DNA from: an uncultured archaeon
GTDB taxonomy: Archaea; Asgardarchaeota; Heimdallarchaeia; Heimdallarchaeales; Heimdallarchaeaceae
Direction of reading: 5' to 3'
NCBI GenBank assembly: GCA_964534625.1
Contig: CAZHRF010000005.1
Span: 1 to 64,000 of the forward strand
DNA: 64,000 nucleotides
A program made the translations under genes and the position numbers. Of this stretch, positions 23,856 to 61,259 are shown piece by piece (the stretch's first letter is position 1; every line of letters begins with the position of its first letter). Below the pieces are notes generated by a model. That model did not search any database. It saw only the letters and a program-made list of their open reading frames with translations, and had not been told where the DNA came from.

Positions 23856-23884
23856 CACAGGTAATTTATTAAAACCTAGAAACA

Positions 23885-24017
23885 CCGGAGGTAGGTGTAA
23901 CAGCACTGAAACCTCAGTCTTCTTTGCTTTGTTCTCCTTTTGTCACGTATCCAGTTGGGTGATGTGATACACTGGCGGGTTTGGATTGGGTAAAGTACCC
24001 AAAAGGATCATGGTCAT
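23885..24017 (+). ncRNA. Short copy of the unknown structured RNA element (3' domain of 56168-56638)
   Basis: 23929-23980 is 47/52 identical to 56541-56592, with flanking AGGTGTAACA and AAAGTACCCAAAAG also shared. Confidence 0.6.
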
Positions 24018-54629: not shown

Positions 54630-56018
54630 TTAGCTGTTAATATCATCTCTTATCAAATCACCCAATTGTTTAATACCATCTTCTATTTGTTTAACATTGG
54701 GTGCCGAATAATTAATGCGCATAGTATTGACTTCAGGTTTTCCTGGTTCTAGGGAAGACGTACCCATGTTATAACTCTCAGATCTATCAGGTAAAGGATA
54801 AAAGGCAGCTCCGGGCACATATAATATTGAATTTGGGATTGCAACTTCTTCTAAAAATGTGGTAGCATTGAATTTTTTGTCTTTTAATTCAGCCCACACA
54901 AAAAAGCCGCCTCGAGGTTTCGTATAATTACATGTATCATCCATATGCTCTTGGATTGCCCCCAACATAGCTTCTGCTCTTTTTCTATATACGCTTCTTA
55001 CTTTTTTAAGAGACTTGTCCATATAGCGCGTATAATAGATATCCAGTATTTTCTGATTTAATGATGGCGTACATAGGTCCAGATATCCTTTTGCTTTTGC
55101 CATCTCATTAAATATAGGCGGGGGTACAATGGTATAACCCATACGCAATACTGCTGCTTCTTTGCTTGAAGACGAAAGGAAACAAACAAATTCATTTTCC
55201 TTATCTAAATGTTTTATGGGGGGAATCTTATCACCGCTAAAGTACATCTCTTTATATGCAGCATCTTCGACAATCAACACACCTTCTGCCACACATATGT
55301 CAAATATGGTTTTTCTACGCGATTCTGGTAACATCGTTCCTTTAGGATTATCAGAATCTGGTACAATATACAACAGTTTTGGTACTTTTCCGTATTTTGT
55401 TTTACATGCGCGTATCGCGCCTTCTAGAGACTCTGGTATGACCCCATCAAAATCAGTTTCAACTGTGATAATCTTTGCACCCAATTTTTGCGCAGGACCT
55501 AAGAAACCCAAATAACAGGGAGCAGGAGAGAGAATTATATCTCCAGGATTTAATAGCGTGTCAAGTAAAAGATAAATTGATTGCTGACTACCTGTTGTAA
55601 TCATGACATTTTGCCACCCTGTTTCTAAGTCCAAATAATCAAGCTTATCTCGACGTATCATACGCTCGGTTAAGGTCTTACGTAACGATTCTAAACCGGT
55701 TGTGGGTCCATAATTCATATTCGGGTAAACGTTCTCATGACCCCGTCCAGCACTAATTTCTTCTTCGAAATTTTTACCTAATTCTTTAAGGATCTCAGCA
55801 AATGCATTAAGTGGTAAAGCCGCAGGCATTCCACCCCCAAAAGAATATTTAACTTTAACAGTTAATAAACGCCTTATTTCGCTTTCTTTGATGAACTTTG
55901 TCCATCCAGCGAACTCATATTCATAATTAGACATAATAATACACCTATTATTGGTTGTATAATGTTTTTTTTTTACTCTTTTTAGACATTTTCCTCTCAT
56001 CATAAAATTCGATATCAT
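54630..56018 (-). CDS. PLP-dependent aminotransferase class I (ARO8/LysN-like)
   Basis: SFGGGMP, TTGSQQ, NPKG, EDAAY, SSSK...RMGY and PRGGFFVW motifs; true start probably MSNYE. Confidence 0.88.
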   Translation of the reverse strand: MISNFMMRGKCLKRVKKKHYTTNNRCIIMSNYEYEFAGWTKFIKESEIRRLLTVKVKYSFGGGMPAALPLNAFAEILKELGKNFEEEISAGRGHENVYPNMNYGPTTGLESLRKTLTERMIRRDKLDYLDLETGWQNVMITTGSQQSIYLLLDTLLNPGDIILSPAPCYLGFLGPAQKLGAKIITVETDFDGVIPESLEGAIRACKTKYGKVPKLLYIVPDSDNPKGTMLPESRRKTIFDICVAEGVLIVEDAAYKEMYFSGDKIPPIKHLDKENEFVCFLSSSSKEAAVLRMGYTIVPPPIFNEMAKAKGYLDLCTPSLNQKILDIYYTRYMDKSLKKVRSVYRKRAEAMLGAIQEHMDDTCNYTKPRGGFFVWAELKDKKFNATTFLEEVAIPNSILYVPGAAFYPLPDRSESYNMGTSSLEPGKPEVNTMRINYSAPNVKQIEDGIKQLGDLIRDDINS

Positions 56019-56167
56019 TAAATAAGATATTTAAGTAAATATTTACCAAACTTTATTCTGTACTTGATTTTATTAAGTGCTAGCAAAATCAATGTCGATA
56101 GTTTTTTCACAAAAGTTTTGTTCCCGCTTGAATCATTAGTTCTCTCAGTCATTTACAAAAAAGAAGA

Positions 56168-56638
56168 TATGGTGACCACGTGAAAATGCAGAAAAAGTTC
56201 ATATGACTCCTCATCGAACTTTTCTTGTTCCATTAGAGACTTGCATAGTCAAACCTATTACGACCTTGCTCTTTTCCGTTCTTTCACTGTACTCGGCCAA
56301 TGGTCGCAGTACCAGACAGTCAACTCGTCAACTCCTTAACGTGGAATGACAGTTGCTATCATCCCGGAGGTGGTGGGGTTCTTCAGGAGCCCCGATGAAA
56401 CCCTTGAGGGCCACAAATGAGTCCCGGGAAGAATGTCGCGATGATCCCTCACACTGGCGCTAATCTTGTAGATTGCTGGTGTAATCTTGACACTTATCGC
56501 TCCCAGGTGTAACAACACTGGATACCTTGGTATCCTTGTGTTGTTCTCCTTTTGTCATGTGTCCAGTTGGGTGAGGTGATATACTTGCGGGTAACCGTGG
56601 GTCACTTACCCAAAAGTACCCAAAAGAACTCATAGCAT
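56168..56638 (+). ncRNA. Unknown large structured non-coding RNA candidate
   Basis: GC-rich island (56341-56400 has 33/60 G+C) with at least 8 helices and no credible ORF; partial second copy at 23885-24017. Strand inferred from G.U pairs and is uncertain. Confidence 0.65.
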
Positions 56639-56742
56639 CTGTCTATTGAATATTTTGAATTATTGAAAACGACAGAAAATATTTTTAAATCAACAATGTA
56701 TAATAGATACTAGTTATCATAAACAAAAAGAGTGAATATAAA

Positions 56743-56913
56743 ATGATGATCGTACAATCTAAAGTCAGGGAATATGTAAAGGAACAAGGGGATTTCAAAG
56801 TTGCTAGTGACTTTTTACAAGCGTTGGATCAACAGTTGTCGACAATTATAAAACAAGCATGTGAAAGAGCTAAATTGAACGGGAGAAAAACTGTTTCTGC
56901 CAGAGATGTGTAA
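56743..56913 (+). CDS. Short histone-fold protein (56 aa), missed by the ORF track
   Basis: MMIVQSKVREYVKEQGDFKVASDFLQALDQQLSTIIKQACERAKLNGRKTVSARDV, with the RKTV..RD histone motif and a truncated alpha3 helix. Confidence 0.92.
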   Translation: MMIVQSKVREYVKEQGDFKVASDFLQALDQQLSTIIKQACERAKLNGRKTVSARDV

Positions 56914-59889: not shown

Positions 59890-60618
59890 ATGCCATTTTG
59901 TAAGAAATGCGGAGTGGAAGTAGAAGAGAGACATGAAACATGTCCATTATGTGGGGAAAAAATTAATGGAAAGATAGGAGAGGAGGATCTAGAAAACAGA
60001 AAGTATCCTAGACAAGAACCTACAGAGGGTAAAAAGTTCAAAAAACTGAGTCCAGAGATACAAAGAAAAATCATATGGGAAATAGTAAGTATAGCATTAA
60101 CGGTTCCATTAATTTTAATATTAATTATTAACTTTATATTAAGTAGGACTGTAGACTGGGGATTATACCCAATTACTACAATAGTTTATATTTGGTTAGC
60201 TATATCTTTTCCACTACGATTTTTAAAAAAACCTTTATTGATCGTGGGAGTAGAAATAATCTCACTTGTAGGCTTTTTAGCCATTATAGATTTGATAGAT
60301 GGCACATTCAGTTGGTTTCAGTATTTAGCGCTACCTATAACATTCACTATCATCATAATCACAGGGATAGTAGTATTACTCTCATTCAAATCTAAAAGAA
60401 AGGGAGCCAATATTGCGGCATTTATACTGTTTGGAGTATCTCTTTTATGTATTGGATTAGATCTTATAATAATAAATTATGTTAAAGAAGTAGTGATACT
60501 AATCCCCACATGGTCTATATTTGTATCTTTAGCCTTAATACCAATAGGGTTGTTTTTGCTTTATATTCATTACAGATTATCAGAAGTTGTAGACATAAAA
60601 AGAAAAGTACAATTATGA
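59890..60618 (+). CDS. Zinc-ribbon membrane protein (DUF6320-like)
   Basis: MPFCKKCGV...CPLCG followed by about 6 TM segments; stop codon supplied by the adjacent mobile element. Confidence 0.75.
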   Translation: MPFCKKCGVEVEERHETCPLCGEKINGKIGEEDLENRKYPRQEPTEGKKFKKLSPEIQRKIIWEIVSIALTVPLILILIINFILSRTVDWGLYPITTIVYIWLAISFPLRFLKKPLLIVGVEIISLVGFLAIIDLIDGTFSWFQYLALPITFTIIIITGIVVLLSFKSKRKGANIAAFILFGVSLLCIGLDLIIINYVKEVVILIPTWSIFVSLALIPIGLFLLYIHYRLSEVVDIKRKVQL

Positions 60619-61009
60619 ACTACCACTGCCTACAGGCAGATGGTTTCTTGCTTCAACGAAGTGGCCTCAAAATGAGGGCTGAACTCTTCTCCACAAGCGT
60701 CGTCTATAGGTCCCGTTGTTCCGACGGTACATGGCTCTAGTACACACAACGTACCGACTCTACATCGGAAGTCCTCAATACCTTACTTAGGTAGATACGT
60801 ATACCCATTATCGTTGTTTAATGTGTAGCTCTATCTTCTACTTCCATCTTTTTCTTTTTGTCTCGTACCACTCTTGGTTTTCGAGATGGCACCAAAGCAA
60901 GTACACAAAGACAGCATACTTACAAAATGTTTGTATGCTAAAACTGACTTTTGTTTTTTCTTCTTTTCATCCTCGCCCTCAAGGACGGGGTTTTCAAGAA
61001 GACGTTCAC
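60615..61009 (-). mobile_element. Non-autonomous IS200/IS605-family element (PATE/MITE) with TnpB omegaRNA-like right end
   Basis: Minus strand: left hairpin GAAAACCCCGTCCTTGAGGGCGAGGATG; right end GTACCGTCGGAAC...CGCTTGTGGAGA...TCGTTGAAGCAAGAAACCATCTGCCTGTAGGCAGTGGTAGTTCA(T). TTTAT precedes the left end. No tnpA or tnpB ORF. Confidence 0.82.
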
Positions 61010-61180
61010 ATAAAAATAAAAAAGAACACAAAAACAATCATCTAAAATAAACTACAAGAAGAAATACGTAACGAAACAAAGATTTAAAAGAAGAAAGGTC
61101 AAGAGATAATTGCGCATAAAAACCTAAGGTAAAGGTTAAATGTCCCTATTCGTGTTTAATGCGCAGGTAGCAGAAATAAT

Positions 61181-61259
61181 AGCGAGGTAGGCTAGCATGG
61201 ACAGGCCGCAGGGCTCATAACCCTGAGATCGGGTAGTTCAAATCTCCCCCTCGCTACCA
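61181..61259 (+). tRNA. tRNA-Met(CAT), initiator
   Basis: Acceptor stem AGCGAGG/CCTCGCT (A1-U72); anticodon arm CAGGG-CTCATAA-CCCTG with three G-C pairs; TTCAAAT loop; encoded CCA. Confidence 0.96.

Follow-up and report, generated by a model that had tools for sequence, protein, structure and literature searches.

The question raised by this locus is what kind of element occupies positions 56168-56638 of the analysed window, a 64,000-nucleotide stretch of DNA from a metagenome-assembled genome (MAG) of a Heimdall-group Asgard archaeon. This MAG, here G000, is 89.8% complete. The stretch lies between a class I/II aminotransferase gene (54630-56018, - strand) and a 56-aa open reading frame (ORF; 56743-56913), and the original prediction read it as an undescribed class of RNA, possibly linked to that ORF, which it took for a histone gene. 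No Pfam family matches the 56-aa ORF at E ≤ 0.001. We conclude that window positions 56229-56633 (+ strand) are very probably a gene-less, 5'-truncated copy of a transposon that encodes only TnpB and is found in Heimdall-group Asgard archaea.

Much of what had been described from the letters of the stretch holds. It is a modestly GC-rich island (GC 0.42-0.43 versus ~0.33 around it) with no conserved ORF, and only chance ORFs of 48-60 aa are present. A coding interpretation of an 'MSP...' frame spanning the short subfamily of the element described below was rejected, as the frame has stops in most copies. All of the proposed stems, including that at 56461-56475, and both proposed long-range pairs are found in the sequence where they had been placed. 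The stretch folds better than shuffled sequences on both strands (z = -3.1 on the + strand and -3.7 on the - strand), so energy alone cannot choose between the strands.

Comparison with Rfam 15 returned no matches for the window copy, either at the gathering score or at E ≤ 10, and five full-length copies of the element were also without a relevant match. The same holds at E ≤ 10 for HEARO and the rest of the Rfam 15 covariance models, for window and full-length copies alike. As had been proposed, the stretch is neither RNase P nor SRP RNA, both of which are encoded elsewhere in G000 (C30:3332-3654 and C3:69568-69878, respectively), and by Rfam tRNAs and group I/II introns are also excluded. 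Among public sequencing runs, the locus occurs in four DNA runs of one microbial-mat study, and no RNA run is listed.

The stretch had been treated as one unit from 56168 to 56638, but 56168-56228 is part of a different repeat of ~150 bp, modX (56090-56240, + strand). This repeat adjoins the element and takes up ~60-70 nt at the start of the stretch. Copies of modX that are 70-81% identical occur in G000 at C3:89550-89690, C26:31424-31562 and C1:41029-41168, all without the downstream structured part. The modX sequence follows the pattern ...CTTCACAAAAGTTT...TGACCACGTGA...CCTCATCGAAC..., and its copies, at least four, are all intergenic and oriented toward the downstream gene; the copy at C1:41029-41168 sits upstream of EF-1alpha. 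It may be a small MITE, a promoter module or an sRNA. The left limit of the structured element is consistent with homology of the window copy to copies on contigs C1 and C94, which begins at 56227-8 (nhmmer), and its right boundary is at 56633. An 18-mer, GTACCCAAAAGAACTCAT, ends there (56616-56633) and occurs ~22 times in G000, followed by unrelated DNA in every instance.

The element is a dispersed mobile repeat with ~37 copies in G000, not the single RNA gene that had been supposed; a search of the genome against itself gave 31 matches and iterated nhmmer gave 37. The copies form subfamilies, namely A (the window copy), B (571 bp, for example C27:21602-22172), C (on C1 and C94) and Z (short, ~240 bp). 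Copies of A and B end in ...GTACCCAAAAGAACTCAT and those of C and Z in ...CTGCCTAAAAAAACTCAT, and the DNA past the terminus is unrelated. Subfamily B has the left end CATGGGTTTTTTTGGCCACTTTTGGGTAC, which is present at least 10 times. Many of the copies lie at contig ends, where a repeat that disrupts short-read assembly would be expected. For one insertion, uninterrupted paralogous sites are available for comparison, so that a version of the unoccupied site is present. The repeat of the 3' domain noted at 23.9 kb is real, and is a second, shorter 5'-truncated copy at window 23884-24006 (+ strand; 79-84% identity to 56505-56616, nhmmer E = 2e-23). A complete 569-bp copy occurs on metagenome contig OMKS01039176.1 (positions 1250-1818). 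The end of that contig (positions 1920-1981) resembles a Nextera-type sequencing adaptor, and the contig is apparently untrimmed.

This dispersal bears directly on the histone gene. A stand-alone, undescribed cellular non-coding RNA, a ribozyme or scaffold serving the adjacent histone gene, would account for a strongly conserved structure without an Rfam match. The ~37 dispersed copies have unrelated neighbours, however, none of the other copies examined lies beside a histone-like ORF, and the homologues described below are parts of tnpB transposons. No connection between the element and the 56-aa ORF was seen. We therefore give the original interpretation scarcely any credence, and regard the placement 5' of the histone ORF as an accident of insertion.

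Truncation of the copies is mostly one-sided. Copies cut at the 5' side to 29-162 nt keep the exact right end, and left-end-only fragments are few. Solo right-end stubs of 29-38 nt stand in unique DNA at C4:111330-111367, C4:125491-125526, C49:16062-16090 and C30:40782-40813 of G000, and contain the hairpin, the repeats and AACTCAT of the right end. An exact 3' end with varied 5' cut points is what an RNA-mediated or self-splicing element might leave, for instance a retroelement of SINE type or a TnpB transposon joined to a group I intron in the manner of an IStron. The element's 5' and 3' ends can also pair, with G-U pairs, one copy adjoins a broken ileS-like ORF, and group I introns are known from IS607-type TnpB elements (bioRxiv 10.1101/2023.11.20.567912). 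This explanation is nevertheless very improbable, given that no reverse transcriptase (PF00078) was found in G000, full-length copies have no group I/II intron match in Rfam at E ≤ 10, target-site duplications and A-tails are absent, and left-end-only fragments exist too. The ileS-like ORF belongs to C27:20336-23674, which holds the sole full subfamily-B copy on one contig. To the left of this copy is an N-terminal fragment resembling ileS, and to the right a C-terminal fragment of tnpB. Such an arrangement suggests that copies have recombined or that the MAG join is chimeric, and so is not clean evidence that the element interrupted ileS.

The origin of the repeat became apparent from related genomes. 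A BLAST search of the full element against 40 relatives gave a single weak match, which led to a genome of a sister genus (G001), where homology was confirmed by nhmmer (E = 1.6e-9). Exact matches of the conserved core TCAYGTNNCCAGTTGGGTGARGTGNTAYA outside its own genome numbered zero in genome contigs and one in metagenome contigs, the latter from the same species. G001 and G005 hold two forms of the element: six gene-less copies of ~355 bp, and at least six copies of ~1.77 kb in which the left ~75-90 nt and the right ~285 nt surround a single 488-aa ORF. The intact element thus comprises a left end with a TATA-like box, a sole gene for a 488-aa TnpB, and a structured region of ~290-345 nt. 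This region begins within the last codons of tnpB, with its first hairpin (P1) overlapping the ORF end, and stops at the right end, ...AACTCAT. Such a start and stop are what define a TnpB omega RNA by position. The same-strand position at the tnpB 3' end, overlapping the end of the ORF, recurs in intact elements of G001, G005, G024, G014, G043, G018 and G010. The tnpB 3' regions of the last five of these genomes match the family profile (nhmmer E = 1e-38 to 1e-82), and their terminal sequence is (A/T)AACTCAT or closely similar.

The 488-aa ORF matches Pfam PF07282 (Cas12f1-like TNB) at 2.5e-13, and its nearest solved structures are TnpB and Cas12f. In 10 TnpB homologues, D231, E390, D425 and the four cysteines of the zinc ribbon are invariant. 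From the conserved RuvC triad and zinc ribbon, the protein is predicted to be a TnpB RNA-guided nuclease. Glycine occupies the canonical RuvC-II Glu position in the homologues, and an alternative invariant Glu is found elsewhere. A rearranged RuvC-II type of TnpB has been described (PMC10691335), and the TnpB of the present family is of that type. The clade is annotated as transposase or TnpB in Heimdall-, Thor- and Lokiarchaeota, was found in 20 genomes when 47 from the order were searched, and is multi-copy in two complete Heimdallarchaeum genomes (13 and 18 matches). A copy in Ca. Heimdallarchaeum endolithica is tnpB-only, with the left end CATGAGT..., the P1 hairpin at the ORF end and the right end ...AAATCAT.

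An intact cognate tnpB was not found in the 89.8%-complete MAG. The search recovered just four fragments, of which two lie at contig ends. One contig end carries the left end and TnpB residues 5-38 (C22:45590-45836) and another TnpB residues 317-367 (C17:1-154). An intact autonomous copy is perhaps present in the organism and unassembled. The left parts of the C1 and C94 copies encode TnpB residues 415-474. The window copy likewise retains a decayed remnant of the last ~40 codons of tnpB (56229-56348, + strand), which matches residues 447-486 of TnpB P0001 by tblastn (40% identity, E = 1e-6) and is 52% identical over 25 aa to TnpB P0016. With 56229 as the 5' truncation point, the window copy therefore consists of the tnpB tail, the whole scaffold and the right end, with the left end, the promoter and the gene lost.

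A second, unrelated TnpB insertion sequence is also represented in the window. Its left end is at 60924-61016, with a GC peak at 60601-60900, and it adjoins a tRNA (61181-61256). A full copy lies at C30:32978-34400 of G000 and ends ...TAGTTCAT, and many short gene-less derivatives are scattered throughout that genome. We considered and rejected an origin of the element under study from this insertion sequence: the ends and 3' regions are unrelated, there is no nhmmer match, and the hairpins differ.

We tested the predicted fold for covariation among 13 distinct sequences, which span several genera and come from G000, G001, G005, G024, G014, G043, G018 and G010. Consensus folding with RNAalifold across all G000 subfamilies had given only 14 pairs globally, since the central part differs among subfamilies (positions 56500-56550, the middle of the element), so domains that align across lineages were tested instead. 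Five helices with 30 base pairs were included, namely the junction-closing helix, the inner helix, the 56375-56393 hairpin, the 56452-56481 helix and its inner hairpin. Across these 30 pairs and 13 sequences, 93.3% of cells pair, whereas only 33-57% do so in a control in which partners were slid by 1-3 columns. Both sides changed in 17 of the 30 pairs, compared with 8.6 +/- 1.8 in shuffles, and none of 500 shuffles reached 17. Several pairs show three different Watson-Crick types. The 13 sequences represent few clades, so independent events are fewer than cells. MAFFT columns were used with no covariance model, and a two-column register shift of three G000 rows in one hairpin lowers the paired percentage and does not raise it. 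G-U pairs occupy 28 of 389 cells; these would be A-C mismatches on the - strand and so support the + strand, in agreement with the orientation of tnpB. The large, conserved + strand RNA-type fold that had been proposed is therefore borne out by covariation and G-U pairs together.

The fold can be followed from the end of the gene to the end of the element. P1 (56289-56312, + strand; loop GCC-AAU-GG) lies within the end of the tnpB ORF in intact elements and is found in every lineage with compensatory changes (GUAC/GUAC to GUCU/AGAC; G-C to A-U). It is followed by P2 (56316-56357, + strand), a hairpin of variable length seen in the consensus fold of the G000 copies, in place of which G001 has a short GCAGA/UCUGC hairpin. 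A multi-way junction (56362-56429, + strand) is closed by 56362-67/56424-29 (TCCCGG/CCGGGA) and contains an inner helix (56370-74/56410-14) and hairpins at 56375-93 and 56401-10. In the three junction helices tested, 87%, 97% and 89% of cells pair and nine pairs changed on both sides, and the 56375-93 hairpin exists in four versions (GGGGUUC/GAGCCCC, GCUUUCC/GGAGAGC, GUCUUCC/GGAUGAC and GAGAGCC/GGUUCUC). The next domain (56438-56500, + strand) is closed by GCGAU/AUCGC, to which GGAG/CUCC corresponds in G001. It has a conserved loop, GAUGAUCCC, a helix at 56452-58/56475-81 and a hairpin at 56462-66/56470-74; in these last two helices 97% and 98% of cells pair, with both sides changed in 8 of 12 pairs. 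A long hairpin (56511-56545, + strand) is conserved in subfamilies A and B, and other hairpins are found in C/Z and in G001. The 30-nt core TCAYGTNNCCAGTTGGGTGARGTGNTAYA (56555-56585, + strand) is conserved in sequence and nearly invariant across all G000 subfamilies.

The right end (56589-56633, + strand) comprises a subterminal hairpin (TGGGT 56598-602/ACCCA 56608-12), two 10-nt repeats (T/G)TACCCAAAA and the terminal AACTCAT. The same layout is present in G001, G005, G024, G014, G018 and G010. The left and right ends are imperfect inverted repeats of each other over ~28 bp, with 10-bp-spaced repeats. These inverted repeats, the proliferation of internally deleted 355-bp and 571-bp forms and the good folding of both strands could all be explained by an ordinary MITE, in which the hairpins act as DNA only, either bound by a transposase or folded in single-stranded DNA, and there is no functional RNA. 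We consider this improbable. The covariation runs through ~200 nt of the interior, far from the ends, and the 28 G-U cells are mismatched on the other strand. Moreover, the region occupies exactly the position of a TnpB omega RNA, overlapping the ORF end, and its interior core is conserved whereas the termini vary between subfamilies.

The structured region has the position, the boundary and the covariation of an omega RNA. The window element can with good confidence be described as an orphan, PATE-like omega-RNA cassette, that is, the scaffold and right end of a tnpB transposon. An omega RNA had been named beforehand as an outcome contrary to a new RNA class, and the homologues, which sit at tnpB 3' ends and run to the right end of the transposon, lead to that outcome by position. 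Rfam holds no model that detects the scaffold. It is the best explanation with the caveat that most omega RNAs described so far are shorter than this scaffold and that no Rfam family confirms it. The original interpretation is thus partly supported: the fold is real, and the class is a different one.

We propose a mechanism that follows established TnpB biology (PMC10055086, PMC10278001). The structured region would be transcribed on the + strand, with or after tnpB, and then trimmed to an omega (right-end) RNA, the fold of which would be the scaffold bound by TnpB. In TnpB systems the guide is the DNA immediately past the right end (PMC10055086); here it would be ~16-20 nt of flank read beyond 56633. 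By this rule the putative guide flank of the window copy is 56634-56650 (+ strand), if the scaffold is transcribed as an omega RNA. Guided TnpB would cut copies of the site that lack the transposon, beside a TAM (the short motif at the target), and repair would restore the element. The name PATE has been given to elements without a gene whose omega RNAs are used in trans (PMC10055086), and the gene-less copies of the present family would depend on TnpB in trans, as proposed for PATEs. As no intact cognate tnpB was found in the MAG, the window copy may be inert. It may be functional only in trans, if it is transcribed and an intact TnpB is present in the cell, and would otherwise be a relic.

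How the family moves is a separate question. The left junction is invariably ...CAT|G, with the preceding base C in G000 or a purine in G001; the right end is TCAT, and AT is common to both junctions. One speculation is that the two ends together reflect a TAM that has CAT at its end and departs from the right-end motif at position -4. Y1 TnpA (PF01797) was not found in G000 and is present in G001 and G005. Several candidate sources of the transposase were rejected. The serine recombinases of G000 are of resolvase type and unlinked to the element, and the Cas1 genes of these genomes belong to Cas4-Cas1-Cas2 CRISPR adaptation modules. The IS607 elements of G001 and G005 have ends unrelated in sequence. 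These IS607-type elements (G001:C27:144623-148033 and G005:C184:262-3648) encode a serine-recombinase TnpA of 188 aa that has a MerR-like HTH at its N terminus, and after it a TnpB-like ORF of >480 aa. With the elements examined, no Y1 transposase, reverse transcriptase, linked serine recombinase, DDE transposase or stand-alone Cas1 was found.

A joint reading of these observations, which we consider rather unlikely, would have three parts. A kind of transposase not yet linked to TnpB would recognise the ~28-bp imperfect inverted repeats, with their two 10-bp-spaced sites, and carry out the exchange at the shared AT/CAT core; the dozens of orphan scaffolds would be live, trans-acting guide cassettes; and the left-side truncations would be a by-product of TnpB-guided cutting and repair and not of random decay.

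The analysis removes a false lead, in that the supposed new RNA class beside a histone gene is the guide-RNA scaffold of a transposon. What is gained is a set of exact boundaries and a covariation-backed fold for the omega RNA that belongs to a clade of Asgard TnpBs whose RuvC site is rearranged. The end architecture and the truncation pattern stand out as unusual. Compact archaeal TnpB/omega-RNA pairs are relevant to the mining of genome editors and to the history of TnpB and Fanzor between prokaryotes and eukaryotes.

Among known systems, the present family differs from IS200/IS605 sensu stricto, which moves by Y1 TnpA and peel-and-paste, in that asymmetric ends with like-oriented subterminal hairpins are missing. 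By its end architecture it is not a classical IS200/IS605 family, and the inverted-repeat ends, the 10-bp-spaced repeats and the AT shared by the junctions are unlike the ends of Y1 (IS605) elements. It resembles IS607 (serine-recombinase TnpA plus TnpB) in the ~10-bp-spaced repeated motifs of both ends and the AT at both junctions, but has no linked serine recombinase or group I intron signature. TnpB transposons with symmetric ends have been linked to DDE (IS630) transposases, and Cas1-linked TnpBs are known from Asgard archaea (PMC10691335). The family shares with these a tnpB between inverted terminal repeats and an Asgard host, although no DDE or Cas1 gene lies in or beside the elements examined.

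The closest likenesses are to OMEGA systems and to PATEs. As in the omega RNAs of TnpB (OMEGA; IS200/IS605-IS607 superfamily, for example ISDra2), the RNA region lies on the tnpB strand, begins inside the ORF at its 3' end and runs to the right boundary; the scaffold shows conservation and covariation, and it is paired with a protein that carries a RuvC triad and a zinc ribbon. The present scaffold differs in its length of ~290-345 nt and in the lack of a match by sequence or in Rfam, and in its TnpB the canonical RuvC-II Glu is replaced by Gly, with another invariant Glu as the alternative. Imperfect inverted repeats form the ends instead of asymmetric hairpins, and the guide role is here a predicted one. 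PATEs are gene-less IS200/IS605 derivatives, described from Haloquadratum (PMC3119063) and Geobacillus (PMC10055086), from which the family differs in its inverted-repeat ends and in that no Y1 TnpA was found in G000. In the window copy, homology stops at ~56229 against modX, so it does not have the two ends without an ORF that characterise PATEs and MITEs, and with its left end missing it is not a complete PATE. Both ends without an ORF do occur in C27:21602-22172, in the metagenome copy on OMKS01039176.1 and in six copies of G001. Like PATEs, the gene-less forms are multi-copy, non-coding derivatives that keep the ends and the omega-RNA region and would take their proteins in trans, and the 355-bp form of G001 and the 571-bp form of G000 fit this description.
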